A DNA stretch of 15,236 nt, taken from positions 1 through 15,236 of IMG/VR virus record IMGVR_UViG_3300023486_000048; one strand, 5' to 3'. Below, piece after piece: positions 1 through 14,502 of the stretch. The stretch's first letter is position 1; every line of letters starts with the position of its first letter. Under the pieces are notes generated by a model, which saw only the letters and a list, made by a program, of their open reading frames with translations, was not told the DNA's origin and ran no database searches. This DNA is from a virus. Position numbers and translations under genes: made by a program.

Positions 1-51
1 TGTGGAATGCCTGTGGATTAACTACAACCCCCAACTGACGCTTTTTTGATT

Positions 52-576
52 ATGGCGCGTAAACCAACATCTTTAATCCCGCGGACGCACCGGGAATTAT
101 GCGAAATTGCTGAACGCTGGCTCATGGGCTCTGCCCGTTGCCGGGTGGCGATCGCGGAACCGAACTGCATCGTTACGGACGAGCAGCCCGACGCTATAGG
201 TTTCAAGGGATCGTATAGCATCCTCGTTGAGGCTAAAACCAGCCGGGCGGATTTTTTGGCAGACCTCAAAAAGCCGTTCCGCCTCCGTCCTCAAAAGGGT
301 ATGGGGTATTGCCGATACTACATCTGTGAGCCGGGGATCATCACAGAAGATGACCTGCCGGAACGGTGGGGATTACTGTATGTCCTCCCTGGCGGACGGG
401 TTCGGATAGTTCGGTACAGCAGACATTTCCGTGAGGCAAACTACGCCGCTGAAAGGAGCCTTTTGACCGCATGCCTGTACATCCAGAAGCCGCTAAAAAT
501 CAATACTGTTCAAGGCAGGAAAATACAGCTCTCACCTGCATTTGGCGCAGAAGCAAAAGAGAAGGAGGGGATATAG
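52..576 (+). CDS. PD-(D/E)xK-fold nuclease-like protein (MmcB-like), phage early gene
   Basis: ORF track 46..576 starts at TTG 46, with ATG at 52. The motif D(AIGF)...ILVEAKTSRADFLAD...K followed by YYICEPG matches the D...E-x-K nuclease core seen in MmcB-type proteins. Stop is TAG 574-576. Confidence 0.55.
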   Translation: MARKPTSLIPRTHRELCEIAERWLMGSARCRVAIAEPNCIVTDEQPDAIGFKGSYSILVEAKTSRADFLADLKKPFRLRPQKGMGYCRYYICEPGIITEDDLPERWGLLYVLPGGRVRIVRYSRHFREANYAAERSLLTACLYIQKPLKINTVQGRKIQLSPAFGAEAKEKEGI

Positions 577-581
577 TATAT

Positions 582-1337
582 ATGGCCGGAGACTGGATAA
601 AGGTTGAACACACAACACCCGACAAGCCGGAAGTGGTGAAGTTGGCCGACATGCTCGGCATTGATCAGGATGCCGTGGTTGGAAAGCTGCTGCGCCTTTG
701 GATTTGGGCTGATCAACAATCCGTCTCTGGTAACGCTATCACCGTTACAAATTCGTTTCTCGACCGTCTCGTATTCTGCCCCGGTTTCGCCGCTGGGCTT
801 GTCAAAGTCGGCTGGTTGAATGGACGCAATGGACTCCTTTCAATCCCCAATTTTGACCGCCATAATGGCCAAACCGCTAAGAATAGGGCCAATACGAACC
901 GCCGAGTTGCGAATCACCGAAAAGGACGTAACGATGAAACCGTTACAGATGTAACGCCCGAACCGTTACAAAAACCGTTACCAGAGAAGAGAAGAGAAGA
1001 TAATACTACTACACCAACTACAACCGGGCGCGAAGTCTGCCAATTTCCGCAGGACGTGTCCGAAATTGACCGCTTCATGGCCGCTCAAGTGCTGCACCCG
1101 CTCGGAGACGAGCTTACCCGGTGCGCCGAACGGTTTTTTAACGAGCAAGCCGCCGTTGGCTGGAAAAACAAGCACGGCATCCCCCTGGCGGACTGGCGGC
1201 CCCTGGCCCGCCAATACGCCGCCACCTGGGCCCGCAACAACGCGGCCGAAGCTGGCTTAAAGCCCGCCAATGCCGCGGGAACCGCATCAAAATCAACACC
1301 TAAACCATCACGAAGAGATGAACTCTGGACAGACTGA
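582..1337 (+). CDS. phage replication initiation / replisome organizer protein
   Basis: ATG 582 lies 11 nt after a strong SD (GAAGGAGGGG, 561-570), so the ORF-track start at 471 is an upstream extension overlapping the previous gene. The N-terminus WIKVEHTTPDKPEVVKLADMLGIDQDAVVGKLLRLWIWADQQS and the C-terminus FNEQAAVGWKNKHGIPLADWRPLARQYAATWARNN resemble phage replisome-organizer/DnaD-like proteins. A helicase loader follows. Confidence 0.7.
   Translation: MAGDWIKVEHTTPDKPEVVKLADMLGIDQDAVVGKLLRLWIWADQQSVSGNAITVTNSFLDRLVFCPGFAAGLVKVGWLNGRNGLLSIPNFDRHNGQTAKNRANTNRRVANHRKGRNDETVTDVTPEPLQKPLPEKRREDNTTTPTTTGREVCQFPQDVSEIDRFMAAQVLHPLGDELTRCAERFFNEQAAVGWKNKHGIPLADWRPLARQYAATWARNNAAEAGLKPANAAGTASKSTPKPSRRDELWTD
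729..982. repeat. iteron cluster (CGTTAC / GTAACG), putative phage origin inside the replication gene
   Basis: There are seven copies of the hexamer in 250 bp: GTAACG at 730, 928 and 951; CGTTAC at 743, 941, 964 and 976. Three share the longer form AACCGTTAC(A/C) at 938, 961 and 973. About 0.1 copies are expected by chance, and the rest of the window holds only background numbers. The cluster lies in a linker-like part of the protein and is followed by a purine-rich run (982-1000). Confidence 0.55.
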
Positions 1338-2058
1338 CGACCCCATTGACGCCCGGCACGCCCTCAAAGGTGCCGACATTGAAAGCCTCTTGGCATCCAT
1401 GACAGCGCTTGCCACGGATGACGGAAGAAGCATTGAAGAACTGGAAGCGGAAGCGCTCGCCGCCGAGAAACAGCGGGAGGAAGAACGCAAGGCAACCTAT
1501 GAACGCCTGGGCCTGGTTGACCGAGGCTTTCCTCGCCGGGCGATTGATTGCCTCGACGAAGTGACCGGAGAACCATGGAAGAAGGCCCTCCGTGATGCCT
1601 ATCGCCTTGTTTTGACTCCTGGGAGTATCATTGTACTAAACGGACGCTACGGCACCGGGAAAACGGTTTTAAGCACGTTTCTTGCCCGCGTCATGTACCG
1701 GCGCAAGAAGCGCGTCCTCTATACCAAGGCCTATGATTACACGATGGCCCTGCGGGAGACGTTCAACGGCGGCGGCTCTGAATCCTCTGTCATGGCCCGC
1801 TACAAGTCGCCTTATCTGCTGGTCCTGGACGAGTATCACGAGGTAAAGGACACGGACTTTACAGGCCCGGCGCTGGAACGGCTCATTGACTACCGGCACC
1901 AGAACGGCAAGCCGACCATCATCATTGCCAACTACAGCCCCGCCGCCCTGGAGGATCGCCTCGGCCCGGCCATTGTTTCACGCATCCATCTATGCGGCAC
2001 CATCATCACGTGTGATTGGCAATCGTACCGTGAGATCAACTACAACCTCCGGGAATAG
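1318..2058 (+). CDS. DnaC/IstB-like AAA+ helicase loader
   Basis: Walker A is GRYGTGKT and Walker B is LLVLDEYH. The position after the replisome organizer fits. The start is uncertain: ATG 1318 overlaps the upstream stop by 20 nt, and ATG 1270 is the ORF-track start. Confidence 0.8.
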   Translation: MNSGQTDDPIDARHALKGADIESLLASMTALATDDGRSIEELEAEALAAEKQREEERKATYERLGLVDRGFPRRAIDCLDEVTGEPWKKALRDAYRLVLTPGSIIVLNGRYGTGKTVLSTFLARVMYRRKKRVLYTKAYDYTMALRETFNGGGSESSVMARYKSPYLLVLDEYHEVKDTDFTGPALERLIDYRHQNGKPTIIIANYSPAALEDRLGPAIVSRIHLCGTIITCDWQSYREINYNLRE

Positions 2059-2094
2059 CCCTGGAATCTCGTATACCCCCTGGAATCTCGTATA
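2059..2094 (+). repeat. perfect 17-bp tandem direct repeat CCCTGGAATCTCGTATA x2 (2-nt spacer)
   Basis: Copies lie at 2059-2075 and 2078-2094, immediately after the stop of the helicase-loader gene at the high-GC/low-GC boundary. Confidence 0.9.
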
Positions 2095-2109
2095 GGGGGC
2101 GCGTTTTTA
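2076..2109 (+). terminator. weak hairpin plus T-run between convergent genes
   Basis: CCCCC (2076-2080) pairs with GGGGG (2095-2099) across a 14-nt loop, followed by CGCGTTTTT. The short stem and large loop give only moderate support. Confidence 0.35.
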
Positions 2110-2120
2110 TCTTGGAAAGA

Positions 2121-3425
2121 TCAAGATTGTTTCTTTGTAGACCGCCCCCTTGTATCAAACGCCGGGATATTTAATTTTCTCCTTGCTTTTCCGATAACTT
2201 GTATTGATTTGCCTGTTTTATTAGCGACTTCTTTATCAGTCATTGTGCCCAGCAGGGATTTAATGTATTCGTCCCCTTCTATTGTTTCTTGCAAGCTTTT
2301 TTCCTCACGTAATGCCGGAACATTCAATTTCTGTCTAATTCTTCTTACTGCCTCGTCATCAATATTAAATTTTTCGGCTATTACTCTATCATAAACTTTC
2401 CCAAGCATAGATAAGAGTTTTTTACGTTGGTCCGGTGAAAATCTTTCTAAAATGCTTTTACTGAAAGGCTTAATTTTGTTCTGTTCTCTAAATTTTTTAA
2501 TTACATATACGCTGTACCCTGTTTTTTTTGCAATTTTTAAATCTGATACTCTTCCCAATAAATTAAGAATTATATCCTTGTCCGCATCCTTAATGGGAGA
2601 GTATGGAGCTGGAGCAATTTTTAATTTTCTACGGTTCCGCGCTACAACATTAAGCGATATTCCAAGCCTTTCAGCAATTTCGCTATCAGGAACTTTCCCA
2701 AGCATGGATAGCATTTCTTCGCGTTTCTCTTCGGGGAATTTAGTATCAGATAATGATGGAATGCCCATCTTTTTTCTAATAAGCGCAATTCCTGCCTTGG
2801 AATAACCGAATTTTTTAGCAATTTCATCATCCGGGGTCTTTCCAAGCATGTTAATTAACTCTTCGGGATACTCTTTTTTCTTGTGTGGTTTATTTGGGTC
2901 TCGTGGCTGACGGGGTTTACGCGGCCCCCTATATGACTTAATCCCTAATTTCTTTCTAAGGTAGGCTACTCTGGAATTTGAGTATCCAAACTTCTTGGCA
3001 CACTCCGAGTCAGGAATTTTTCCGAGCACTGCAATAAGCTCTTCATCGTGTTGGATGCGGATTGCTTCAGGGCTGCAATACTTTTTGATACCTAATTTAT
3101 AGCGTTCAGTCTGGACCGTGACGCGCGCTATTCCGAGTAGCTCGGCGATTTCCAGATCAGGTTTTTTGCCCAACATGGACCGCATTTCTTCACGCTGTTC
3201 GTGAGAAAGAATGCGGTGAAACCTCTTTTCTCGGTATTTTTCATGCAATAACTCCATGAGCAATTGCATGTATTCAGGCGTGGGATGTGGTTTTTTAGTA
3301 TTTAGCCACTTCCAAACAGCATCTTCCGTCACCCGCATCATCTGCGCGGCCCTTTTTACAGCTTGGGTAGGATTTGGAAGATTGTTGGCAGTTTGAAGCC
3401 AGTCGATAAATTCTTGTGCGGTCAT
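2121..3425 (-). CDS. DNA-binding protein with an N-terminal HTH plus seven tandem HTH-like repeats (GcrA / sigma region-4-like modules)
   Basis: The ORF is 434 aa. The repeat core x-LG-K-x-PD-x-EIA-K-K-x-G-x-S-x(3)-V-x(3)-R-K-L-x-I recurs with LG anchors at aa 85, 134, 194, 242, 290, 341 and 392 (period 48-60 aa, DNA about 2160-3206). The protein is Lys/Arg rich. The gene is about 35-40% GC against about 60% in its neighbours. Confidence 0.85.
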   Translation of the reverse strand: MTAQEFIDWLQTANNLPNPTQAVKRAAQMMRVTEDAVWKWLNTKKPHPTPEYMQLLMELLHEKYREKRFHRILSHEQREEMRSMLGKKPDLEIAELLGIARVTVQTERYKLGIKKYCSPEAIRIQHDEELIAVLGKIPDSECAKKFGYSNSRVAYLRKKLGIKSYRGPRKPRQPRDPNKPHKKKEYPEELINMLGKTPDDEIAKKFGYSKAGIALIRKKMGIPSLSDTKFPEEKREEMLSMLGKVPDSEIAERLGISLNVVARNRRKLKIAPAPYSPIKDADKDIILNLLGRVSDLKIAKKTGYSVYVIKKFREQNKIKPFSKSILERFSPDQRKKLLSMLGKVYDRVIAEKFNIDDEAVRRIRQKLNVPALREEKSLQETIEGDEYIKSLLGTMTDKEVANKTGKSIQVIGKARRKLNIPAFDTRGRSTKKQS

Positions 3426-3437
3426 AGTGAGAAAGGA

Positions 3438-3456
3438 GGGGCGGCTTTGCCGCCCC
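3438..3456 (-). terminator. GC-rich hairpin between the two leftward genes (attenuator or processing/stability element)
   Basis: GGGGCGGC-TTT-GCCGCCCC forms an 8-bp perfect stem with a 3-nt loop. On the minus strand it is followed by TCCTTTCTC and then directly by the ATG of the HTH-array gene. Confidence 0.4.
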
Positions 3457-3466
3457 TGGGGGTTAT

Positions 3467-3790
3467 TTAGTGAGCTTCAACGCGGGAAGCGTCCTGCGTC
3501 CAGTTGAGGTTTTCTCCTTCAATTTCTTCGCCCGTCATTTGTTCAAAGACCATGAAGATTTCAACCTTGTTCCCTTCTGCATCATAGCCGGGAGCAGACC
3601 ATTCTTCCATATAGCTGCCGTCTTCGTATTTGTCCGCATAGGAGCCAGGGAAAACCCTGTTGGTGTATTCCATCTGGCGCGCTGCATAGTAGGTCTTGCC
3701 TTCAAACTTGTAGCTGCCAAATTCACGTTCAAGAGCGGTCAGGTTGATTTCTTCTCCGTCTTCCGTGGTGATGATTTTGTTATCGTTCAT
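3467..3790 (-). CDS. small highly acidic hypothetical protein
   Basis: The ORF is 107 aa with an ATG start, and it is the first gene of the leftward cassette. It has 24 D/E against 9 K/R residues by direct count. I recognise no family. Confidence 0.7.
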   Translation of the reverse strand: MNDNKIITTEDGEEINLTALEREFGSYKFEGKTYYAARQMEYTNRVFPGSYADKYEDGSYMEEWSAPGYDAEGNKVEIFMVFEQMTGEEIEGENLNWTQDASRVEAH

Positions 3791-3862
3791 TGTCTTGTTC
3801 TTTCTAGTTTTGTTATTTGGATTATGTCTTCGTTCGGTCCCTTACCTCCCGTCAACAAAATT

Positions 3863-3891
3863 AAGTTACTATAAAATTTATAGTAACGCAA
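3863..3891 (-). promoter_or_regulatory. leftward promoter candidate with an embedded 23-bp perfect palindrome (operator)
   Basis: The palindrome GTTACTATAAA-A-TTTATAGTAAC spans 3865-3887. On the minus strand TTGCGT (3891-3886) and TAACTT (3868-3863) are separated by 17 nt, so the palindrome fills the spacer and overlaps both hexamers. It lies about 75 bp upstream of ATG 3790. Confidence 0.45.
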
Positions 3892-4057
3892 GAGAAAAAA
3901 TGAAAAAAGGTGAAAAAAGTTGTCATTCCGTTTTTGCTTGCGGCCTGGCGCAGAATATGAGAGAAGTAATTTGTTCTTTCTAGGAACACGTCAGCCCTCC
4001 GGGGCTGTGGATTAAAACGATCACAAGATCAGCACGAGCGGAAACGCTCATTCCCTT

Positions 4058-4090
4058 AAAAAGGGCGGTTCTTCGGGGCTGCCCTTTTTT
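4058..4090 (+). terminator. rho-independent terminator, structurally plus-strand specific
   Basis: The structure is AAAAA, a 9-bp stem (4063-4071 paired with 4076-4084), a TTCG loop (4072-4075) and TTTTTT (4085-4090). Three G-T wobble pairs become A-C mismatches on the minus strand, leaving only a 4-bp stem there. Confidence 0.6.
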
Positions 4091-4607
4091 ATTCCTTCGG
4101 GACGGCAGGGGCGGCAAGTACCCGCCATCCGGCGCCGCTGCCATGTCCGCATTTGCGGAAGCGTTGTGCAGCACAAACCAGGAGCTTATAGACCTTTTTC
4201 CCCTTTTCTTCGCCGTACCGGTCTATCATGTAGAGTTTGAGATTCCGAGCCGTGACTTTCTCTCCATCCGGGGATTCCAGCAGCCATATCTTTGCATGGC
4301 AATTTGTCTCAAATTTCCCTGTTCTGGGGTGCTTCCTGGGGCCGGGAACTCCCCGATGCTTGCAAGCCTCCTGAAAGGCTTCTGACGTGATTTTCCGCCC
4401 CTTCTGGGCTGCATTCGCGCAAGGATAAGAGCAATGTTTCCGCCGAAAGAGTTTTTTAGCGCGGAATTCCTTTCCGCACACGGGGCAGGTGATAGTTTCC
4501 CAGGCCTCCGCATAGTGAGCCTGGAGGCAGGCCCGGGAACAGTACACGCTGTCGCGCTTGCCCGCGCGGGGAGGGACATCCTTGCCGCATATAGGACACT
4601 TTTTCAC
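4089..4607 (-). CDS. double zinc-ribbon (FCS/TRASH/YacG-like CPxCGK...CSxxC) protein with a NUMOD-like C-terminal region; possible late-gene regulator
   Basis: The ORF is 172 aa with a GTG start at 4607. Two modules are present: CPICGK...YCSRAC and CPVCGKEF...HCSYPC. The C-terminal WLLESPDGEKVTARNLKLYMIDRYGE resembles DNA-binding modules of homing-endonuclease-associated proteins. The gene is divergent from the late operon. Confidence 0.7.
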   Translation of the reverse strand: MKKCPICGKDVPPRAGKRDSVYCSRACLQAHYAEAWETITCPVCGKEFRAKKLFRRKHCSYPCANAAQKGRKITSEAFQEACKHRGVPGPRKHPRTGKFETNCHAKIWLLESPDGEKVTARNLKLYMIDRYGEEKGKKVYKLLVCAAQRFRKCGHGSGAGWRVLAAPAVPKE

Positions 4608-4674
4608 AAAATCTGTATATGTGAGAGGGTCAGATTTGTCAATGGGCCCAGAAAGGAATGAACAAACAGAGTGC

Positions 4675-4704
4675 TTGATTTGCTAGCTACTTGTCCTCTA
4701 GAGT
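4675..4704 (+). promoter_or_regulatory. sigma70-like promoter candidate for the late operon
   Basis: TTGATT (4675-4680), an 18-nt spacer, then TAGAGT (4699-4704). This would place the transcript start within a few nt of the TerS AGG at 4713. It is a sequence match only. Confidence 0.3.
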
Positions 4705-4712
4705 AGACCTGC

Positions 4713-5228
4713 AGGAAAAAGAAGCAATCACCTACCGCCAACAAGAAAATAGGACGGCCCAGCCTCTATACGGAGGCATTAGCCGACGAGATAGCCTCCC
4801 GTTTAGCCAACGGGGAAACGATGAAGTCCATTTGCTCGGACGATCACATGCCGGAGGTTTTAACTGTCTGGAGATGGAGGCACGAACGGGAAGAGTTTTG
4901 TAAACTCATTCAACGCGCGCGGGAAGCGCAGTCAGAAGCCATGCTCGACGAGTGTCAGTCTTTGTCAGATGCCGCTGCCCAGGTTGCCCTCGACCCCGAA
5001 TGCGGATCCGCCTCCGTCGCTGCCAAGAAGCTCGCCATTGAAACGCGGCTGAAAGTTGCCGCCCGTTTTGCCCCCGAGAAATTCGGCGACCGAGTCCGGC
5101 AGGATGTAGCGGGCGTTCCCGGCGCTCCATTGGAACGCAAAATCACCCTGGACCCCGAGCAGCTTGCCCAGCTCCGGGAAGACGAGAAAACCGCGCTGGA
5201 AACCATTGCCGGCAAACTCCACCCTTAA
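4713..5228 (+). CDS. terS: terminase small subunit (HTH N-terminus); start non-canonical or unresolved
   Basis: The in-frame translation from 4752 reads GRPSLYTEALADEIASRLANGETMKSICSDDHMPEVLTVWRW...RAREAQSEAMLDE...ETRLKVAARFAPEKFGDRV. This is the pattern of a widespread small-terminase family whose HTH sits at the extreme N-terminus. The first canonical start (ATG 4821, ORF track) would delete that HTH. The in-frame stop is TAG 4704-4706, and there is no ATG/GTG/TTG between 4707 and 4820. In-frame AGG is at 4713 and ATA at 4749. Confidence 0.8.
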   Translation, partial: RKKKQSPTANKKIGRPSLYTEALADEIASRLANGETMKSICSDDHMPEVLTVWRWRHEREEFCKLIQRAREAQSEAMLDECQSLSDAAAQVALDPECGSASVAAKKLAIETRLKVAARFAPEKFGDRVRQDVAGVPGAPLERKITLDPEQLAQLREDEKTALETIAGKLHP

Positions 5229-5234
5229 TCGAGC

Positions 5235-6608
5235 AGGAACCATCTCCCCGTCAGCTTCTTCCTCCGTCACATTCTCGGACTCGATCCTTATCCCTGGCAA
5301 ATCGAGGCCATCAAGGCATTGCTTCTTGGAAAGGTGAGGCTGGGAGGTCGAAGCGTGGCCATGGTTGCTCCGAACGGATCGGGAAAGACGAGCCTATCCA
5401 TTGCGCCCGCAATCCTGTGTTTCCTTACCTATTTTCCTCGGGGTCAGGTGCCAGTCACGTCATCATCATGGATGCAGGTAGAAAAACAGCTCTTTCCCGC
5501 GCTTCGCCGCTATATGGATAACCCTTTCTTTGACGGCTGGACATTCAACAAAACCGAAATCCGCACGCCGGAAGGAGGATTTGCCGTGGGATTCTCAACC
5601 GACAACGCGGGACGCGCAGAAGGGTGGCATCCGAAAATCTCGCCCGACGTGGATCCCGTCTTTTACGTCCTGGACGAAGCCAAGACCATTCCCGACTCCA
5701 TCTTCACCGCTGTTTCCCGCTGCACGCTCTTCAACGCGTTCATCACCTCGTCGCCGGGTGCCGATTCCGGAACCTTTTACGACTGCTTCCACAAAAATTC
5801 ATCCCTCTACTACAAAATCCGCGTTAAATACGAGGATTGCCCGCACATCGAAATCAACGATCCAGGCAAGGCCGAACGCCTGAAAAAAGAATACGGCGAA
5901 CAGTCCTCCTTCTACCGCTCGGCCATCCTCGGCGAATTCACGGACCTTGACGGGCAATCCGTCATTTCCCGCCGCGCCATCATGGAGCTGCTCAACAACC
6001 CGCCTCCCTTTTTGGACACCGGGGAGACCTGCGGCGGCTTTGACTTCGCCGCCGGGGGTGATGAGAATGTCTTCGCGGCCGGACAGGGCAACCGTTTTTT
6101 CATCGCCGACCACTGGGCCGACCCAGACACTGTAGGAGCGCGCGGACGTTTCCGCCGAAAGGCCGCCGAACTCGGCATCTCTGCCGACCGCATCTTTGCC
6201 GACGGCGACGGACTGGGGCTTCCCATCATTGACGACTTCCGGGCTGAGGGTTTCCCCGTGCACTCCTACCGGGGAGGCTTCCCGGCAGATGACACACAAG
6301 CCTTTGTCAACCTCCGCGCCCAAGCATGGCGGGCTCTCGCCCGCGCCATCGAAGAAAAAGAACTCATCCTCGACATTGACGAGGATACGATTGAGCAGCT
6401 GGTTGCTCCACGACTCCAAACCGACGCAATAGGCCGCGTCCGCATTGAAAGCAAAGAAGATATGGCAAAGCGGGGCGTTCGTTCCCCAGACCGGGCCGAC
6501 GCCCTTGTGATGGCCTGGCACGCGCGCCGGAACAGCGGACTGGCGCGGACGCTGGGAGCCTGGTACGCCCGTCCCGTGTCATCAAAACGCGCTTACGGGA
6601 GATATTAG
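5235..6608 (+). CDS. terL: terminase large subunit; start non-canonical or unresolved
   Basis: Walker A is APNGSGKTS and Walker B is FYVLDEAK, with a C-terminal nuclease-sized domain. The ORF-track start is TTG 5319, but the in-frame sequence FLRHILGLDPYPWQIEAIKAL, typical of a TerL N-terminus, lies upstream. No canonical start occurs between TAA 5226-5228 and 5319. In-frame AGG is at 5235 and ATT at 5271. Confidence 0.85.
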   Translation, partial: RNHLPVSFFLRHILGLDPYPWQIEAIKALLLGKVRLGGRSVAMVAPNGSGKTSLSIAPAILCFLTYFPRGQVPVTSSSWMQVEKQLFPALRRYMDNPFFDGWTFNKTEIRTPEGGFAVGFSTDNAGRAEGWHPKISPDVDPVFYVLDEAKTIPDSIFTAVSRCTLFNAFITSSPGADSGTFYDCFHKNSSLYYKIRVKYEDCPHIEINDPGKAERLKKEYGEQSSFYRSAILGEFTDLDGQSVISRRAIMELLNNPPPFLDTGETCGGFDFAAGGDENVFAAGQGNRFFIADHWADPDTVGARGRFRRKAAELGISADRIFADGDGLGLPIIDDFRAEGFPVHSYRGGFPADDTQAFVNLRAQAWRALARAIEEKELILDIDEDTIEQLVAPRLQTDAIGRVRIESKEDMAKRGVRSPDRADALVMAWHARRNSGLARTLGAWYARPVSSKRAYGRY

Positions 6609-6610
6609 GG

Positions 6611-6639
6611 TTGACAACATATCAAGATATCAATATATG
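6611..6639 (+). promoter_or_regulatory. sigma70-like promoter candidate in an AT-rich island between terL and portal
   Basis: TTGACA (6611-6616), a 17-nt spacer, then TATATG (6634-6639). The spacer contains the direct repeat ATATCAA x2 and a GATATC palindrome. Confidence 0.35.
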
Positions 6640-6661
6640 ACGATATGTAAGCAATCGCAGG

Positions 6662-8110
6662 GTGGTGAAACGGTATCACGCGGGGTTCCTGTCCCCGAAT
6701 CGAAGGTCCAACTCCTTCCCCTGCAACCACCTTTTCTTTAGCCTCAGGTTTAACGCCGTCAAAAATATCCTCAACGCCCCGAAGCTGGTAGCCCAACAGG
6801 AGACCAGAATCAAGGAGCTTGAAACGGACCTGGCCCGGCGAGCGTTGACGGAACAGAGCCGGAAGCCTAACCAGCCTCAATGGTACGAATATTGGGACCC
6901 GTTACAGGGCGCCGACCTGCAAACCCTGATTGACGCCCGGAACGAAGCGCGGCGTGGAGCCTTTGCCCGCCAAATGCTCATTTGGGACGAGGTCATCTAC
7001 TCGGACGGCTTGATGGGCATGCTCTATTCCCGGCTCATTGAAAGCGTCTCCATGCAGGGATGGAAGATTGACGCCGCGGACGACAGCCCGGAAGCCCAGC
7101 GTCAGCAGAACGCGCTGGAAGAATTCTATCACTCCGTCACCGGACTTCAACAGGCCTTTGGGCAGTTGGCCTCCGCTATGTTTTACGGGTACGCCCACCT
7201 CCAATACATCGAAGATTCCTGGGGCCGCCGCTTTGAATTCATCCCGCAGCGATACTGGGTGCGGCCCGGAGAGCTGAACGAATGGCAGTTTAATCCCCAG
7301 TGCTACATCGGGGTCGACACGGGCGAGAGCGTAGAGGAAGAAACGCTCGTGGTCATGGAGCACCGGAACCCCATTCTTTTTCCGGCAACCCGCGCCTCTT
7401 TTGAGCGGAATCACGCCAAAGTTACGTGGGACAACCATATGGACCGCTACGGGAGCGCCCCGGTCATCATCACGGCGCCCAAGGACGCGAGCGCCGCCGT
7501 CATGGACGCGCTGGAACGGGCCTGTGAGGAACTCAAATCGGGAGCCTCCATTGTGCTTCCTCCCGGCTGCACCGCCGAACCGTTGAAAGCCTCCAACATC
7601 AACGAAAACTATTTCCTATCCCGAATCAACATGTCCGACAAGGACCAGGTGCGGTTTGTAATGGCCGGCACTCTGACCGTCCTGAATGAATCAGGATCCG
7701 GCACGCTGGCCGGGGGAGCGCACACGGACAGCTGGAATTCGGTCGTCTCCGCGGTCTGTTCCAAGGTCGCCGAAGCTTTTAACGCCGCCATCAGCCCGCT
7801 TGTCCTGGGAGACGGCGAACCGCTGGCCCGCCTCCACATCACTTTTGACACCGTCCAGACCCCGCTGCAGAAAGCCGAGGAAATCGCCGCGCTTGCCGAC
7901 GGAGGCGTCCGCCCCGAGAAGACCGAGATTGAAGAAAAGATCGGCATGTCGATCGAGGACACGCAGGACCCCGTTCCGGTGACGGCGGCGGCCAACAGGG
8001 AACCGGAAAAAGCACTCATTCCGCCCGATGCTTATGAACAGCTTCAGCAAATGATTTACGCCGGACTCATGAAAGGATTTACCGATGATCAGCACGAAAC
8101 AAATCAATGA
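6662..8110 (+). CDS. portal protein (DUF935 / Mu gp29-like)
   Basis: The ORF is 482 aa and sits after terL. The segment RGAFARQMLIWDEVIYSDGLMGMLYSRLIESVSMQGWKI...DDSPEAQ fits the Mu gp29-type portal pattern. GTG 6662 is immediately preceded by in-frame AGG 6659-6661. Confidence 0.75.
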   Translation: MVKRYHAGFLSPNRRSNSFPCNHLFFSLRFNAVKNILNAPKLVAQQETRIKELETDLARRALTEQSRKPNQPQWYEYWDPLQGADLQTLIDARNEARRGAFARQMLIWDEVIYSDGLMGMLYSRLIESVSMQGWKIDAADDSPEAQRQQNALEEFYHSVTGLQQAFGQLASAMFYGYAHLQYIEDSWGRRFEFIPQRYWVRPGELNEWQFNPQCYIGVDTGESVEEETLVVMEHRNPILFPATRASFERNHAKVTWDNHMDRYGSAPVIITAPKDASAAVMDALERACEELKSGASIVLPPGCTAEPLKASNINENYFLSRINMSDKDQVRFVMAGTLTVLNESGSGTLAGGAHTDSWNSVVSAVCSKVAEAFNAAISPLVLGDGEPLARLHITFDTVQTPLQKAEEIAALADGGVRPEKTEIEEKIGMSIEDTQDPVPVTAAANREPEKALIPPDAYEQLQQMIYAGLMKGFTDDQHETNQ

Positions 8111-9197
8111 CCTGTCCCGACCCGCCAACGGCTGGTTCCACGTTGAGAAAAGCGGAGACCATGACGTTGACTACGGCGAGGGTCCCGCCGTGTTGCGCAT
8201 CGACGAGCAGGCGATCCGGGACATGGTGGACGACTTCAACGCCCGCACCTTTGACGGCCCGGGCATGCTCATCGACGGCGACCACCTGAGCCACGACCTT
8301 TCCCGCGATACTCGGGCCCTCGGATGGCTCAAGAGGCTGGACACCTACCGCGACCCTTCCGGCACGCTGGAACTCTACGGGTTCATCGAATGGACGCCGC
8401 GCGGCCTGAAGATGCTGCAGGACAAGGAATACACGCAATCATCCACCGAATATGGCGAAGGCATGACTTTGACGGACGGCGTCTACCGCCCGTCGCGTCT
8501 GACCGGCTTCGCTCTGACCAACCGGCCGCGCATCAAGGGAAAGCGGCCTCTGGTCAACCGACAGACTTCCCCCGCCTCCGACGAGGCCGGGGGCGACCCC
8601 AAAAGCCCCGAAGAGGGGGAAACAACCCAGAAAACCAATATGGAAAACGACGATAGAGAATATCCGTCCAAGGAGATGGACAAGGCCCAGCGGGCCCTGT
8701 TCGACTCCCTGCTTGACAAGCTGGATGTCGAATTTGACGGCACCGACGACATGAGCAGGGCGATCCTCGGACGCCTTGATGAACTGCTCTCGCTGGAAAA
8801 GCGTGAGAAAGACCACGTGAACGCCGAAGTGGACGACGCCGTCAGCACGTACGAAAACGCGCTGGACGAGGAAGAACGCGAGGAATTCACGGAAGAACGC
8901 CGGGAAGAGCTGAAAAACTCTCTCCGGGAAAGCCCCGCCGCGCTGAACGCTTTTATCCGTGCGCTCAACCGCCAGACTCCGCCCAAAAAACCGGATCAGG
9001 AGGAAAAGAAGGAACTGCCGAAAAGGACGCCTCTGAACCGCCGCGCGACGCTGAATCCCCCTGACCCATTCCGCAAGAAGGAATCCATTGACGGATTCAA
9101 CAACCGCGTCAACGAACTGATCAAGGACGGCATGAAGCGCTATGACGCCTACCAGAAAGCGACCGAAGAAGGCTTCATCGTCTCCGCCAACCGATAA
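8085..9197 (+). CDS. Mu gpI-like prohead protease with a C-terminal scaffold-like charged region
   Basis: The N-terminal GWFHV...IDGDHLSHD...ALGWLKRL...GFIEWTPRGLKMLQDKEY...LTGFALTNRPRI matches the Mu-like prophage I protein pattern. The C-terminal about 190 aa are E/K/D rich and look coiled-coil. ATG 8085 overlaps the portal stop. Confidence 0.75.
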   Translation: MISTKQINDLSRPANGWFHVEKSGDHDVDYGEGPAVLRIDEQAIRDMVDDFNARTFDGPGMLIDGDHLSHDLSRDTRALGWLKRLDTYRDPSGTLELYGFIEWTPRGLKMLQDKEYTQSSTEYGEGMTLTDGVYRPSRLTGFALTNRPRIKGKRPLVNRQTSPASDEAGGDPKSPEEGETTQKTNMENDDREYPSKEMDKAQRALFDSLLDKLDVEFDGTDDMSRAILGRLDELLSLEKREKDHVNAEVDDAVSTYENALDEEEREEFTEERREELKNSLRESPAALNAFIRALNRQTPPKKPDQEEKKELPKRTPLNRRATLNPPDPFRKKESIDGFNNRVNELIKDGMKRYDAYQKATEEGFIVSANR

Positions 9198-9215
9198 CTT
9201 AACCCATATCAACCA

Positions 9216-9647
9216 ATGCCATCACTCAACGTAACCCAGAAAAACGCCATCGTCTATTTCAACGCCCCTGAAGGCGTTGACCTGTGCGGACAGGAAGGAA
9301 CCGTCGTGGCGCTGACCGCCAATCCTGACATCCCCGAATTTGTCGGAACTCCGTTGTCCGCCATCCCCACGCAGACGCAGCTGCTCGGCGTCGTCCTGCA
9401 GGGACAGCCCAACAAGGGAACCTGCGTCGCCGCGCTCGTCGGAATGTATGCCGGCCTGATCAAGGCGGCTCTATCCGACACGCCCGGAACCATCAACGCC
9501 GGAACGCCCGTCACCATCACGGCCAACGGGACATGGAAGGCCGCCGCCAGCGGCGACACCGTCTATGCCCGCGTTATTCATGCCCAGTGGGAACAGGGCC
9601 TTGTGGAAATCGGCTTCGTTCCGTCCTACCAGGTCGCCGCAGCCTAA
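9216..9647 (+). CDS. hypothetical head protein in the decoration-protein position (gpD/DUF2190-like placement)
   Basis: The ORF is 143 aa with an ATG start. It is Gly/Ala/Val/Thr rich and lies immediately upstream of the major capsid gene. The assignment rests mainly on position. Confidence 0.6.
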   Translation: MPSLNVTQKNAIVYFNAPEGVDLCGQEGTVVALTANPDIPEFVGTPLSAIPTQTQLLGVVLQGQPNKGTCVAALVGMYAGLIKAALSDTPGTINAGTPVTITANGTWKAAASGDTVYARVIHAQWEQGLVEIGFVPSYQVAAA

Positions 9648-9681
9648 CTATTAACCCCAACCAACAGAAAGACCAAGAACA

Positions 9682-10608
9682 AGGGCTACTCCATTTTGCT
9701 CCGCCGTTCAGTTCACCGATGTCCTGACCTCCTATTCCGCGGGGTCCGGGAACACCGAAGAGAACTCCATCATCAGCCGCATCGCTCCGATCGTCCCGGT
9801 CTATGACCTGAATTTCCAGTACAAGGTCTGGGACACGGAATCGGCCTTCACCGTCCAGCCCATCCAGGTGGGACCGGGCGAACCTCCCCGCCAGACCGTC
9901 CTGCGCGGAAGAAACGAAACCGACACCCTTCAGGGCTACGGCTTGACGCTGCCCATCCCTGACGCCTTGCTGGGCGTCAACCGGGAAAAGGCGCAGGCCA
10001 TCACCCTGGCGGAATACAAACTCATCGAATCCCAGTTTGTGACGTCGTACGAATACGAACGCGCCAAGCTTCTGATGAGCCAGCTTCCGGCCGCTTCCGG
10101 GATGGGTGACTGGGCCAACCAGCAGAAAAACCCGTTGGCGGATCTGGACCAGGCGATCCTGTCCATCAACGCCGCAACCGGACACATGCCGAACACGATT
10201 GTCTTCGGCATCAACGCATGGCAGCTGCTTCGCTCCAACACGCTCGCGCGTCAGGTGGTTTCCTTCAACAGCGTCGGCCTGTTCAACGAAGACCTTCTTC
10301 GCATGGCTCTGATCCGGCCCATCCGGGATATTTACATCGCCTCCATGCCGTACCGCGACGCTTCCGGCGACGCGAAAACCATCATGGAAAACGAAGTCTA
10401 TGTCCTGTACAAGGAAGACTCCCCGACGCAGTTCGACGCCTCCGCCGTCAAGACCTTCGGTCTTTCCGGCAAGCTTCGCCGAGAAGTCATCACTGAATAC
10501 AAGCCGACGCCGGCCTTGACGCTCGTCACAAACCGCGTCTACTCGCTGACCAAGTTGACGAACCCCAGCGCCATCGTCCGCATCGACGCGACGGCCACCG
10601 GCGATTAA
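9682..10608 (+). CDS. major capsid protein (lambda gpE-like); start non-canonical or unresolved
   Basis: The segments IISRIAPIVPVYDLNFQYKVWD and NPLADLDQAILSINAATGHMPNTIVFGINAWQLLRSN parallel lambda gpE segments (YVSPIVSGEVI and DPTDDIEAYALNASGVVNIIVFDPKGWALFRS). The first segment lies upstream of the ORF-track start GTG 9868. The frame is open from 9655 with no canonical start. Starting at in-frame AGG 9682 gives 308 aa. Confidence 0.75.
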   Translation, partial: RATPFCSAVQFTDVLTSYSAGSGNTEENSIISRIAPIVPVYDLNFQYKVWDTESAFTVQPIQVGPGEPPRQTVLRGRNETDTLQGYGLTLPIPDALLGVNREKAQAITLAEYKLIESQFVTSYEYERAKLLMSQLPAASGMGDWANQQKNPLADLDQAILSINAATGHMPNTIVFGINAWQLLRSNTLARQVVSFNSVGLFNEDLLRMALIRPIRDIYIASMPYRDASGDAKTIMENEVYVLYKEDSPTQFDASAVKTFGLSGKLRREVITEYKPTPALTLVTNRVYSLTKLTNPSAIVRIDATATGD

Positions 10609-10627
10609 CCCCAACCCCGCCTCCATC

Positions 10628-11104
10628 ATGTCCGCCTTTCCTGCCTGGTCCACGATTTCCACCGACGAAGCCGATCGGCTGCTCGGTCTCAACACCGCCG
10701 AACGCGATGCCCTGGTAACAGCCGGGGAACAGCGCAGCCTGGACTACCGGGATGTCATGATGGAGGCGGTCAACGATGTCTGCATGACCATCCGCGGGGC
10801 GCTGGCCAACAACCTCGCCCTGCGGCAATCGCTCCAGAACAGCGGCATGTACGACATTCCGCAAAGCATGCGGTCCCTGGCATGGCCGCTGATCATCCGG
10901 CAGCTCTACCTGCGCTACCAGCTCAACCTGACCGAGACGCGCCAGAAGGCCGCCGAATCGGCGGACGCGATGCTGGCGCTCTACGCCAAAGGGGACATGC
11001 TGCCGGAAAGCGTGGACGGCTCCGCGCCCGCGGATCCCGCCTACATGATGCCGCGCTACACGCGCCGCCCCTGGTTCAACCCCATGCGAAGCACCTACCG
11101 ATGA
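10628..11104 (+). CDS. putative head-tail connector / head completion protein
   Basis: The ORF is 158 aa with an ATG start and lies directly after the capsid gene. It has a weak resemblance to the DUF1320/gp36-like class. The call is mostly positional. Confidence 0.55.
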   Translation: MSAFPAWSTISTDEADRLLGLNTAERDALVTAGEQRSLDYRDVMMEAVNDVCMTIRGALANNLALRQSLQNSGMYDIPQSMRSLAWPLIIRQLYLRYQLNLTETRQKAAESADAMLALYAKGDMLPESVDGSAPADPAYMMPRYTRRPWFNPMRSTYR

Positions 11105-12237
11105 TGACCGCCGCCCAGATGGAGATGATCGCCAACGACTACGCCGAACGCGCCTTTTTCGTGTCCGGCGTGGAGCCCGGCGTTATCCTGTCCGACTTTG
11201 AGGAAAAGGCGGGGAAGGTCGCCTCCGGCGCCCTGAGCTATGAAGAGGCGCAGCAGTCCATCCGCGAAACCCTGCGCCAGCAGGGCTACCGACCGCCGGC
11301 AACGGGGCAGGGCGGCATTCAGGATTTGTCATCCTGGCTCCGCATCCAGGTCGTCATGGAAACCAATGCGGCCATGGCGCACGGTTACCGGAACTGGTAT
11401 AACTGGATGCAGGACGAAGACACGGCCGCCTTCAAATTTTACCGCTCCCAGGGGCGGGAAGACCCGCGCTATTGGGCCGAACGCTGGAACCGTGCCCGGG
11501 CCGGGCTGGAAGAAGAAGCCACGGAAGCGGTATCATCCGGCTTCATCCGCGGGGAAATCGTCGGCTATGCGCTGGCGGCCTCCGATATCTGGATCCGCCT
11601 TTCGCGCTTTGGCACGCCTTACCCGCCCTTTGACTACCTGTCCGGCATGAACATTGCCCCCGTGGGCGCCGAAGAAGCCCGCGCGGCCGGGCTGGCCGTG
11701 TCGCGCGTCCGTCCCGCTCCCCCCAGCTTCAACGCAACCTTGGAAAGCAACGCCAAAGGCGTGACGGAATCCAACAGGAACAAGATCCGCCGCATCCTGA
11801 AAGACGCCGTGCGCGTCAAGACCGGGAACGACGGCAATACCACCTTTGCCTACACGGACCCGAACGGCACGCGCCCTTACACGGACGCGGAACTGGCGGA
11901 CGTCCTGTCCGGGGATTTCCCGGAAGAGATCCCCTTGCGCCAGGCCCAGGCCTTCAGCCTGGCGGCAGCCGGGGGAGCCGTGGCCGGAACGCTGGCGGCC
12001 CTCTACCTGGACCGTCTGCTGGACCGTCTGGCTTCCGAGCCGGAAGGTGATTGGTACGCCCGGCCCGCAGACGTGGCCGCCGCGTCCTCCCGCCAGTATA
12101 TCCCCGTTTCCCCAAAGGAAGAGGGGGAATTCACCTATCCCATTACCTCCGGGCACGTCAGGAAAGTGGAAGACGTCGCCGGAGCCCTCAATGTGGAACT
12201 GTCAACCCCTTACGTTTTACCCGTCAAATGGCTGTAA
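11101..12237 (+). CDS. minor head protein (Mu F / SPP1 gp7-like) with an extended C-terminus
   Basis: ATG 11101 overlaps the upstream stop (ATGA), so the ORF-track start at 10882 is an out-of-context extension. AFFVSGVEPGVILSDFEEK...SWLRIQVVMETNAAMAHGYRNW fits the head-morphogenesis F-family core. Confidence 0.65.
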   Translation: MMTAAQMEMIANDYAERAFFVSGVEPGVILSDFEEKAGKVASGALSYEEAQQSIRETLRQQGYRPPATGQGGIQDLSSWLRIQVVMETNAAMAHGYRNWYNWMQDEDTAAFKFYRSQGREDPRYWAERWNRARAGLEEEATEAVSSGFIRGEIVGYALAASDIWIRLSRFGTPYPPFDYLSGMNIAPVGAEEARAAGLAVSRVRPAPPSFNATLESNAKGVTESNRNKIRRILKDAVRVKTGNDGNTTFAYTDPNGTRPYTDAELADVLSGDFPEEIPLRQAQAFSLAAAGGAVAGTLAALYLDRLLDRLASEPEGDWYARPADVAAASSRQYIPVSPKEEGEFTYPITSGHVRKVEDVAGALNVELSTPYVLPVKWL

Positions 12238-12893
12238 CCGTCCACATCGACCAATCCGCGATTAACCGCGCGTTTGCCGACATGGCGCCGTCCGCCGCCC
12301 TGCACAAGACCGCCATCCGCAAGGCGGGCGTTGCCCTCAGTCTGATGATTCAGCAAACCTTGCGCCAGCAGGGCAAGGACTACTACGACGCCGCGGCGGA
12401 CGCCACCAGCATGGAAGAAACCGCCGAAGGCGTCAGCGTCTCCATTGCCTGGCGCGGCATCGGCCTGCACTGGATAGGCACGCAGGGCTACCTGGGCGGC
12501 CCGCTGCGGCCCACCGGACGCACTTCGGAAGTCACCGGCAAGCCGATTCAGAACCTCGCCATCCCCACCATCAACGCGCCACGAGGGCATGGAGGGACCC
12601 GAAGCATTTACAGCGCAGGCTTCCGCAAAGAGGACTTGCAATTCATCCCCTCCAAAAATGGAGGACGGAATGGAAATGTAACCGGTGTCCTGATTCTCAA
12701 GACAGCCCAGTCCTCCACCGGGAAGAAAGCGGCCCGCAAGCTTTTCAGCAAAGGAACGAAAACAGGAGACGTCCTCTATATCCTGTGCCGGGAAGTAACG
12801 ATTGCTCCTACTCCTGGCATCCTGCCGACGATGGACCAAATGGCGCAGCGCGCCGCGGAAACATACCTCACCCAAATCGGAAACGAATCATGA
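12228..12893 (+). CDS. hypothetical virion morphogenesis / neck protein
   Basis: ATG 12228 overlaps the upstream stop by 10 nt (ORF-track start 12051 is an extension). The product is 221 aa and is translationally coupled within the structural operon. Confidence 0.6.
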   Translation: MAVTVHIDQSAINRAFADMAPSAALHKTAIRKAGVALSLMIQQTLRQQGKDYYDAAADATSMEETAEGVSVSIAWRGIGLHWIGTQGYLGGPLRPTGRTSEVTGKPIQNLAIPTINAPRGHGGTRSIYSAGFRKEDLQFIPSKNGGRNGNVTGVLILKTAQSSTGKKAARKLFSKGTKTGDVLYILCREVTIAPTPGILPTMDQMAQRAAETYLTQIGNES

Positions 12894-13420
12894 TCCCCTC
12901 CATTGACCAGACCATGAGCTGCCGCATCATTGAGCGGCTCAAAAGCAGCAAGGAATTGAGCTGCCACATCTTTGACGCGCCCTTTGATCCGGAGTATGCC
13001 GCCAATGACATCATCATGTCTGCAATGGGGAATAACGGCGTGGTGCTGGTGTGTCCCGGGGATGCGGATGAATACCAGGACGGACACGGGCAGACGGCGG
13101 AACCTACCATGTGGAGGCAGTATTTCATTATTGTAGCCATCTATCACAACGCTGCCCTGTTCCCGGAGGAATGCCTGACGCCGGCCTACTATTTGCGCGC
13201 CGTGGGCGACGTGATTGAGCATGCCCTGTGGAACTGGAATCCACTTCCGTTTCCCGCGCCCGCCATGATGAAGCCCAAGATCAAGGGGCGCTTTGCCTCT
13301 TCCGGGATTATCGACGGAGAGAAGAGGCAAATGAACGTCTTGACCGTGGACTACCGCGTCCCGATCAATATCAACATACGAACCAAAACGGAATTCCATG
13401 AGCAGAACGCCAAAAAATAA
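12890..13420 (+). CDS. hypothetical neck / tail-completion protein
   Basis: ATG 12890 forms an ATGA overlap with the upstream stop (ORF-track start 12785 is an extension). The product is 176 aa. Confidence 0.6.
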   Translation: MIPSIDQTMSCRIIERLKSSKELSCHIFDAPFDPEYAANDIIMSAMGNNGVVLVCPGDADEYQDGHGQTAEPTMWRQYFIIVAIYHNAALFPEECLTPAYYLRAVGDVIEHALWNWNPLPFPAPAMMKPKIKGRFASSGIIDGEKRQMNVLTVDYRVPININIRTKTEFHEQNAKK

Positions 13421-13595
13421 ACAGCAAAAAGACCAGGGGGATCACCAGGACAAGGTGACCGTCCGCGTCGTCAGCACGAAAACAGAACTGGATGGAGGGC
13501 TGGTCATCAGCCTCTTCATGAAAACCGACACCCCGGAACTTCCCGCGACCATCGCGGAAGCTCTGGCAACCCTCAACCTTGTTGACATCAAATGA
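13398..13595 (+). CDS. small hypothetical structural-operon protein (65 aa)
   Basis: The ATG start overlaps the previous gene by 23 nt, and the stop overlaps the next ATG (ATGA at 13592). Confidence 0.5.
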   Translation: MSRTPKNKQQKDQGDHQDKVTVRVVSTKTELDGGLVISLFMKTDTPELPATIAEALATLNLVDIK

Positions 13596-13789
13596 GCAAA
13601 GCAGCTGCAGCCAACACCGAACCGGAGAAGAAGACGGAGCAGGCCGCCGTCATCAACACGAACATCCTCATTCTGTCCAAAGAAGTGAGGATAGGGCGCT
13701 CAACGTTCTTGAAAGGAGCGCATATTCGTGTTACGAAAGAACTCGCCGATAAGCTGGAAGCCGACGGCAAGGCAACAATCATCTACTAA
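13592..13789 (+). CDS. small hypothetical structural-operon protein (65 aa)
   Basis: ATG start with ATGA coupling to the upstream ORF. It lies immediately before the putative tube gene. Confidence 0.55.
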   Translation: MSKAAAANTEPEKKTEQAAVINTNILILSKEVRIGRSTFLKGAHIRVTKELADKLEADGKATIIY

Positions 13790-13803
13790 CCGTTTCAAGC
13801 ACC

Positions 13804-14454: not shown

Positions 14455-14466
14455 CGCGTTTCACCA

Positions 14467-14499
14467 GGGGGCGCGCTGCGCCCCCGCATCCTCTTTTTT
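14467..14499 (+). terminator. rho-independent terminator / attenuator after the tube gene
   Basis: GGGGGCGC-GCT-GCGCCCCC forms an 8-bp stem (14467-14485), followed by GCATCCTC and TTTTTT (14494-14499). Confidence 0.65.
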
Positions 14500-14502
14500 C
14501 CC

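Follow-up and report, generated by a model that had tools for sequence, protein, structure and literature searches.

The window analysed here is a stretch of viral DNA of 15,236 nucleotides (positions 1 to 15,236 of IMG/VR record IMGVR_UViG_3300023486_000048), and our subject is one minus-strand gene in it, at 2121-3425, whose product of 434 amino acids (aa) joins a Cro/Xre-like helix-turn-helix (HTH) module to an array of seven further HTH units. The gene is located between rightward replication genes (initiator and DnaC-like loader) and rightward packaging genes (TerS and TerL). Together with two genes upstream of it, which encode a 107-aa acidic protein and a 172-aa zinc-ribbon protein, it forms a leftward block. 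An earlier note on this DNA, made from the letters alone, had described the gene as opposite in orientation to both flanking modules, and it is indeed opposed to the replication and the terminase genes.

The fusion gene and its seven HTH units

The fusion gene is divided as follows; related proteins are referred to by P numbers and related loci by L numbers.

2121-3425, minus strand: fusion gene (Cro/Xre-like module plus seven HTH units), open reading frame (ORF) with ATG start, 434 aa
3213-3425, minus strand: N-terminal Xre/Cro-like HTH module (aa 1-71), AlphaFold2 helices 3-13, 19-30, 34-42 and 51-67
3069-3203, minus strand: HTH unit R1 (aa 75-119), AlphaFold2 helices 75-84, 90-97 and 101-111; position kept across orthologues
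2922-3056, minus strand: HTH unit R2 (aa 124-168), a middle unit whose count varies among homologues
2877-2921, minus strand: basic proline-rich linker RKPRQPRDPNKPHKK (aa 169-183), net charge +6, predicted local distance difference test score (pLDDT) <50
2742-2876, minus strand: HTH unit R3 (aa 184-228), present in duplicate in P0004 and P0016
2598-2732, minus strand: HTH unit R4 (aa 232-276), with the best Pfam HTH_23 stretch at aa 244-266
2454-2588, minus strand: HTH unit R5 (aa 280-324), position kept across orthologues
2301-2435, minus strand: HTH unit R6 (aa 331-375), position kept across orthologues
2148-2282, minus strand: HTH unit R7 (aa 382-426), position kept across orthologues

To avoid circularity, we searched the product with a unit hidden Markov model (HMM) trained only on units of distant homologues (proteins at most 30% identical, with the Akkermansia clade left out). 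The model finds exactly seven units in the query, at 34-51 bits each and 290.8 bits summed, compared to a maximum of 5.1 bits among 500 shuffled sequences. This confirms the earlier division of the product into a Cro-like N-terminal HTH and seven repeats, although the assignment of the N-terminus is made on weak matches, given below. The units fit the core motif LGKxPDxEIAKKxGxSxxxVxxxRKLxI and share 35% pairwise identity on average; what repetition remains in the DNA under the array is old and diverged (four copies of 70 nt, 60-71% identical). Orthologues as distant as about 46% identity still have the module, R1 and R5-R7 in the same order, and duplications and losses affect the middle units.

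AlphaFold2 models the single unit, from an alignment of 96 non-redundant units, as three helices (positions 4-13, 19-26 and 30-40) with a pLDDT of 91.4. In the full-length model the units reach a pLDDT of about 80-89, the linkers remain below 50 and the predicted template modelling score (pTM) is 0.27. The combination of a low pTM with well-predicted units and poorly predicted linkers suggests independent modules strung together by short, flexible linkers and no rigid solenoid. A solenoid or another non-DNA-binding helical repeat was rejected on the compact three-helix HTH of each unit and the low confidence between units (pTM 0.27); the earlier note had named non-DNA-binding helical repeats as one outcome that would speak against its reading.

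The best fold match of the unit in Foldseek is the DNA-bound HTH of FapR (template modelling score 0.66-0.67, root-mean-square deviation 2.4 Å, E only 0.35). The product is basic, with an isoelectric point (pI) of 9.9 and 92 lysines and arginines versus 57 aspartates and glutamates (net charge +35), and charge is polarised within the units, helix 3 and its tail carrying +2 to +8 and helices 1-2 carrying -2 to +3. The fold, its best match and the charge on helix 3 thus support the earlier assignment of the modules to the HTH type and, as far as models can indicate it, point to DNA binding.

When the unit profile was compared with solved structures, the RpoN-box domain of sigma-54 (E 1.1e-3) and the N-terminal HTH of FapR (E 2.6e-3) were matched, with helix 3 and the 'LGIP' tail pairing with ARRTVAKYREMLGIPSSRERR in the RpoN-box domain and with IRLDRTYLNIPELRKR in FapR. 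The FapR/DeoR-type N-terminal HTH and the sigma-54 RpoN-box HTH are the best single-unit matches, at E of about 1e-3 or worse, but each chain of these proteins has a single HTH, which is connected to further domains. A search of PDB sequences with the full protein returned chance-level KaiA matches only, and a PDB fold search with the full-length model gave nothing at E<=1e-3, sigma factors being among the weak matches.

A two-gene cassette extended by an array

The N-terminal module matches known families weakly: Pfam YdaS_toxin does not reach its cutoff (E 0.0039), a module profile finds the Xre-type structure 3bs3 at E 1.1e-3, and PHROG 16553 'transcriptional repressor' is matched at 0.006-0.007. 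Its helix M53-Y64 is invariant in the full-length alignment A1. The view of helix 51-67 as a separate dimerisation element was toned down, as this helix aligns with helix 4 of the Xre fold. The module resembles the Xre/Cro-type phage repressors in being a small helical HTH with a conserved helix after it, a palindrome nearby and a self-contained cassette; it differs from them in its fusion to a seven-unit array and in its weak family matches.

Homologues of the module also occur as free-standing proteins. In L023/L024 a 69-aa ORF (50% identity, E 1e-19) is positioned immediately after an acidic gene and a hairpin, in the same loader-TerS slot and the same phage type. This ORF is encoded at 5322-5531 on the plus strand, where the recorded gene calls give a 70-aa minus-strand ORF instead, a probable mis-annotation. 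A 79-aa homologue lies two genes after the acidic gene in L022, and an 86-aa homologue lies beside an integrase in L014, an Akkermansia genome.

These free-standing Cro-like proteins define the basic cassette, which consists of a palindrome-bearing upstream region, an acidic protein, a terminator hairpin and a small Cro-like protein. The form found in the window is derived from it: the Cro-like gene of a pre-existing two-gene cassette has been extended by an AT-shifted array of seven units. As far as we have found, there is no earlier description of a Cro-like::array fusion for which natural array-less counterparts exist.

The base composition shows where the extension begins. The G+C content (GC) falls to 0.36-0.39 over the array gene, and at third codon positions (GC3) the gene stands at 0.37 versus 0.53-0.80 in all its neighbours. 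The gene is therefore low in GC at synonymous sites as well, in agreement with the earlier description of it as compositionally foreign. By part, GC3 is 0.46-0.55 in the module, 0.56-0.62 in its free-standing versions and 0.28-0.36 in the units; in the window the module has 0.48 and the array 0.35. The drop is sharp in L006, where GC3 is 0.60 over the first 50 codons and 0.16-0.36 in the later 50-codon blocks, and it comes later in the window, starting at unit R3. The anomaly thus maps mainly to the array extension, with the GC3 break at or just past the fusion junction.

An AT shift at GC3 is also seen in diverged Akkermansia-phage orthologues (array genes 0.31-0.42, neighbours 0.51-0.74) and in two unrelated elements (0.41 versus 0.54-0.74 in L011, 0.45 versus 0.64-0.73 in L012). 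Its persistence in diverged array genes argues against recent transfer as the sole cause.

A word-indexed search retrieved 38 relatives; the sources of the close ones are Akkermansia and unnamed metagenome sequences, and these carry 4-10 units. Homologues at 98% identity form one cluster with 120 member sequences. IMG/VR holds six loci, with 100% identical copies in viral contigs, and the species-representative genomes gave one partial match only. The array-bearing cassette occurs in two different phage backbones. The nearest deposited phage, Akkermansia phage DTMo-2021a (31.9 kb, complete and cultured), is about 84% identical in the flanks, has about 1.2 kb in place of window positions 586-4710, and is without homologues of all three leftward products (array, acidic and zinc-ribbon proteins). 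The absence of the cassette from DTMo-2021a indicates that the array gene is dispensable and accessory.

In L005, positions 8001-10187 encode P0004, a protein of 728 aa with four tandem Cro-like modules followed by eight HTH units. It belongs to the different phage backbone, where it lies beside an amidase gene and follows an S24 CI-like repressor gene in the same orientation.

The remaining members of the leftward block and its DNA elements are listed below.

3437-3457, minus strand: G+C-rich hairpin between the acidic gene and the fusion gene, a probable intrinsic terminator or attenuator (-19.2 kcal/mol, z -4.6)
3467-3790, minus strand: acidic-protein gene, first of the cassette, co-oriented with the array gene (107 aa, pI 4.2)
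3791-3925, minus strand: AT-rich leader or promoter-like region upstream of the acidic gene, nearly invariant
3865-3887, no strand assigned: perfect 11-1-11 palindrome GTTACTATAAA-T-TTTATAGTAAC, putative cassette operator, single copy in the window
4058-4089, no strand assigned: terminator-like hairpin after the zinc-ribbon gene, flanked by an A-run and a T-run, 14-pair stem
4089-4607, minus strand: zinc-ribbon gene, optional upstream member of the leftward block (172 aa)

In each of the five close cassette types examined, the gene for the very acidic small protein, noticed earlier as co-oriented with the array gene, immediately precedes the Cro-like module. The acidic protein has no match in any family library searched or in PDB sequences. 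Its homologues fall into 42 clusters, whose named sources are Akkermansia only. A role as obligate partner or DNA-mimic antagonist of the array is unsupported, the protein accompanying the Cro-like module with or without an array. In L001 (7363-7953), the most abundant phage variant, an additional N-terminal domain of 91 aa precedes the acidic protein, which makes up the C-terminal half of the 196-aa product.

The zinc-ribbon gene has homologues of 72-80% identity in L005 and L006 and is absent from L001. None of its homologues (22 clusters) carries a nuclease domain, and the derivation of the cassette from a homing endonuclease was rejected because the family of this neighbour is without a nuclease.

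The claim that the array gene is bracketed by hairpins holds for one side. The upstream hairpin at 3437-3457 is strong and conserved with compensatory changes, whereas the stem downstream of the gene is no better than in shuffled sequences (z 0.37 / -0.02) and reads better as a terminator of the plus-strand loader gene. In L001, L005, L006 and L019 the T-run after the upstream hairpin ends 7-10 nt before the ATG of the array gene. This leaves no space for a promoter, so that expression probably depends on attenuated read-through. The hairpin at 4058-4089 is kept in all four aligned loci, including L001 without its zinc-ribbon gene.

The HTH unit and its family

On the query, Pfam yields generic HTH models only, namely HTH_23 (2.6e-10), HTH_28 and, as a summed score, Sigma70_r4_2 (E 5.6e-6; 26.4 bits versus a cutoff of 25.7, with no single significant stretch). 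Sigma70_r4 is below its gathering score (17.2 versus 24.1), and no domain-level match to sigma region 4 was obtained. The Pfam GcrA model (PF07750) is absent from the matches of the query at E<=1; traces of GcrA are a faint precomputed match on the distant member P0033 and, by fold, a weak match (E 4e-3) to a phage protein named 'GcrA cell cycle regulator'. The family unit 'WT..e...LG...D..iA..LG.s...V...R..LGI' presumably resembles the N-terminal motif of GcrA. The resemblance to sigma region 4 or GcrA that the earlier note had pointed out is thus real but weak, and no match is strong enough to place the unit in any named HTH family. DUF7317 was considered as a curated model of the unit, but this was not reproduced and the name was found in no paper.

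An exhaustive profile search recovered 13,679 cluster representatives at E<=1e-3, 1,656 of them at E<=1e-30. The best 145 proteins have 5-19 units each, which recur with a median period of 48 aa and together make up about 80% of the protein length. The scaffold of the family consists of W6, L14, G15, D19, A23, V33, R37 and L40-G41-I42-P43, and over 819 units D19 is conserved in 99%, R37 in 98% and G15 also in at least 98%. Position 6 is W in 84% of these 819 units, compared to Q/H/Y/K/D/Q/G in the seven units of the query; the Akkermansia clade is a divergent branch in which W6-T7 has been lost.

No Pfam or NCBIfam model covers the unit; among the family members Pfam gave a single individually significant stretch, of HTH_50 in P0060, and the named members carry 'hypothetical protein' or automatic guesses as annotation. 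The proposal that no tandem family of this kind had been described therefore holds for these two collections; it does not hold in full, since PHROG 323 and PHROG 12058 match the query, the D5 protein of phage T5 is similar and 1,656 representatives exist. As far as we have found, the unit family has neither a curated model nor an experimental study, and for the free-standing HTH proteins of 5-19 units on phages and plasmids we found no study or curated family.

The unit is also found outside phages and fused to other domains. P0161 (675 aa, annotated hypothetical) is a ResIII/Helicase_C helicase fused to six units. In the viral structure library the matches are other phage proteins, with alignments of several hundred columns, as well as a T5-like 'D5 protein' and several endonucleases. 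Family members are present on 66 plasmid records, 58 of them from Pseudomonas and 42 conjugative; the plasmid neighbourhoods examined were uninformative. The Pseudomonas guariconensis chromosomal protein P0039 (WP_409286734.1, 934 aa, annotated hypothetical) has 19 units, and the megaplasmid pQBR103 (NC_009444.1) has 14 matching places, likewise annotated hypothetical.

HTH arrays as such are already known from T5 D5, from the tails of endonucleases and from TnsD. In Tn7 TnsD-like proteins the C-terminal regions fold into multiple HTH domains (PMC10293859). Our literature search for tandem HTH arrays gave analogies only, TnsD and BREX PglZ, and the likeness to Myb repeats, TnsD, TALE and zinc-finger arrays is one of analogy only, as small DNA-reading modules in series.

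Proposed function and alternatives

We propose that the fusion protein is an autoregulated accessory DNA binder, in which the Cro-like module is anchored at an operator and the seven basic units lie on flanking or additional DNA, giving a large footprint, avidity or bridging. We consider the chances of this proposal to be about even. The Cro-like module would bind the 11-1-11 palindrome in the cassette's own upstream region and autoregulate the cassette, and the array gene would be expressed at a low level through read-through of the terminator just before its start codon. The seven units, each with a basic helix 3 and the invariant arginine, may then bind DNA next to the anchor or elsewhere. 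The extra units would enlarge the footprint and raise avidity, and the protein would occlude or silence DNA over a long range or would bridge DNA segments. That the array acts in conflict between mobile elements or in prophage control is a guess.

The anchor is suggested by the palindrome and its surroundings. In the region 3791-3925 almost all columns are identical across four loci, in which the array proteins are 46-98% identical to the query. The palindrome is exact in nine array-bearing loci and has one or two mismatches in L005 and L016; it travels with the cassette into the different backbone of L005 and is kept in L001 without the zinc-ribbon gene. At the equivalent place on the same scaffold, L023/L024 carry a different perfect 11-1-11 palindrome (4906-4928, TATACTAAACA-T-TGTTTAGTATA), and the recognition helix of the Cro-like protein reads VTEMAVWQWL in L023 versus VT[EQK]D[AT][VI]WKWL. 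The differing palindromes of related cassettes suggest a family of operators with swapped specificities. The covariation of palindrome and recognition helix, together with elimination, makes the Cro-like module the best candidate for the palindrome binder.

Another perfect 11-1-11 palindrome, AAATTTGCAAT-T-ATTGCAAATTT, is present at 4602-4624 of L025, in or near a promoter-like scaffold.

Several points weigh against an anchored, autoregulated array. The link between operator and recognition helix comprises two clear operator classes and one imperfect one, in very few lineages, and the palindrome could instead be the target of a repressor whose gene lies elsewhere in the phage. A sigma-70 consensus scan predicted sites no more often than in shuffled sequence and placed no promoter in 3791-4088. 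All PDB matches, by sequence or by fold, have E >= 1e-3, and the proposal does not account for the acidic protein. Moreover, no repeated DNA motif able to match the seven units was found near the gene. A 19-bp unit, TATACGAGATTCCAGGGGG (minus-strand reading), is repeated in tandem at 2057-2094, at the 3' end of the DnaC-like loader gene, with one copy in L006, two in the window, L001 and L016, five in L018 and none in L005. This 17/19-bp repeat was rejected as the target of the array, as its copies vary in number, it abuts the loader gene and it is missing where the array sits in the other backbone; it belongs to the phage backbone.

T5 D5 (T5.118) offers a different model, in which the array would be a global coater that binds duplex DNA cooperatively and with low specificity, shuts off one class of transcription and aids the switch to replication or late expression. 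D5 is a phage protein with 4-5 tandem HTH-like units of about 50 aa ('WTPEqE...'-type), annotated as DNA-binding and as needed for replication and late transcription. The query matches PHROG 323 'transcriptional regulator, D5-like' at 3e-26 in three stretches (the best at profile positions 86-234 of 319), a Vibrio phage 'D5 protein' is among the viral fold matches (E 2.3e-5), and the window gene lies between replication and packaging modules. On the other hand, when T5 D5 itself is compared with the query, the similarity is only marginal (BLASTP E 9e-4 in a two-sequence comparison; hhalign probability 22% with the unit profile), and D5 belongs to a lytic phage and is without a Cro-like N-terminal module. 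The window gene, in contrast to D5, is dispensable, as its absence from DTMo-2021a indicates, and is transcribed against the lytic operons; its Cro-like anchor looks sequence-specific and its units keep individual identities. We regard a D5-like coater as unlikely.

The array could also shield DNA from host DNA-sensing systems, titrate these systems or block the DNA of superinfecting phages, an anti-defence or defence role that we consider quite unlikely. The gene is accessory cargo in a variable slot with the orientation typical of prophage-expressed genes, and in L005 the cassette follows the S24 CI-like repressor gene in the same direction. A distant member lies directly after an AcrVA2-like gene in an element rich in ParB, SSB and methylase genes and another beside a DISARM-like island, and the family is common on Pseudomonas plasmids, 42 of the 66 plasmid records being conjugative. 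By analogy, a retron reportedly senses T5 D5 by means of msdDNA binding (bioRxiv 10.64898/2026.07.11.737809). However, PADLOC gave weak, generic matches only (mad1 1e-4, HEase 2.5e-4) and no significant defence-system component, the associations with AcrVA2 and DISARM are anecdotal, with one locus each, and the plasmid neighbourhoods gave no information.

The DISARM-like case is at positions 1-6734 of L010, in a 5.2-Mb chromosome, where the distant array gene lies next to a DISARM-like set (MmeI-type methylase, helicase, DUF1998/MZB and PLD) and to a VapBC pair, a single case. A third distant setting, again a single case, is a contig full of unannotated small genes.

In a further alternative, which we hold to be decidedly doubtful, the eight modules together would read one long specific site of 40-80 bp, having originated from homing-endonuclease tails, and would protect that site or mark a target of recombination or insertion. 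Such tails (GIY-YIG/HNH) contain tandem HTH units of the same type, typically one to three. The query matches homing/HNH endonuclease families (PHROGs 7168, 59 and 1891, besides the PADLOC 'HEase' match), and in deposited phages tblastn found only tails of GIY-YIG/homing endonucleases from Vibrio phages, at 30-33% identity. Endonucleases are also among the viral fold matches, and the units are distinct and positionally conserved. In recent unit duplicates helix 3 changes fastest, at 2-4 times the rate of helices 1 and 2 (0.33 substitutions per site per pair versus 0.17 and 0.08; binomial p 1.2e-4), a comparison of only 12 pairs from 7 proteins. The window protein differs from homing endonucleases in its seven units, its Cro-like N-terminus and its lack of a nuclease domain: family library searches matched no nuclease family in the fusion protein or in either cassette neighbour, nor was one seen in their homologues. 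The variable number of middle units among close relatives (4-9) is hard to square with one fixed long site.

Related to this is the view of the 48-residue unit as a modular DNA reader, with arrays of 5-19 units reading long sites unit by unit and positions 30, 31, 34, 36 and 38 of helix 3 setting specificity; its prospects appear slim. Specificity would then evolve by unit duplication, unit loss and helix-3 substitution. The positional identities of the units, the faster change of helix 3 and the fusions to helicases and nucleases are compatible with modular reading but do not demonstrate it.

A protein-binding decoy, with units that imitate sigma region 4 or the sigma-54 RpoN box and tie up RNA polymerase, anti-sigma factors or activators in place of binding DNA, is very improbable: the weak Sigma70_r4_2 and RpoN-box matches and the sigma factors among the full-length fold matches would favour it, but no sigma match is significant as a domain, the net charge of +35 is concentrated on helix 3, the family unit is also fused to helicases and nucleases, and its best structural match is a DNA-bound HTH.

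Knowledge of what the array contributes would be informative on the ways in which mobile elements assemble DNA binders of high avidity or for long sites, and it could bring to light a new class of silencers encoded by such elements. Should the units read DNA singly, they would provide a new programmable scaffold and a bacterial mobile-element counterpart of zinc-finger and TALE arrays, here with a Cro-like anchor. The window is a tractable entry point to these questions because a Cro-like module is attached, a candidate operator adjoins it, natural array-less cassettes exist and relatives differ in unit number. In addition, Akkermansia muciniphila, whose prophages contain the gene, is a gut bacterium of medical interest.

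Some smaller DNA elements accompany these features. No structured RNA was detected in 1900-4900 (no Rfam match at E<=1). A 13-nt direct repeat, CTAGAAAGAACAA in minus-strand reading, is present in the upstream region of the cassette at 3971-3983 and 3795-3807 and is invariant in four loci, its second copy stopping just short of the ATG of the acidic gene. Inside the replication-initiator gene, a 23-nt iteron-like repeat, GTAACG..N..ACCGTTACAAAT, occurs in three copies (730-752, 928-950 and 951-973) that probably constitute the replication origin of the phage.

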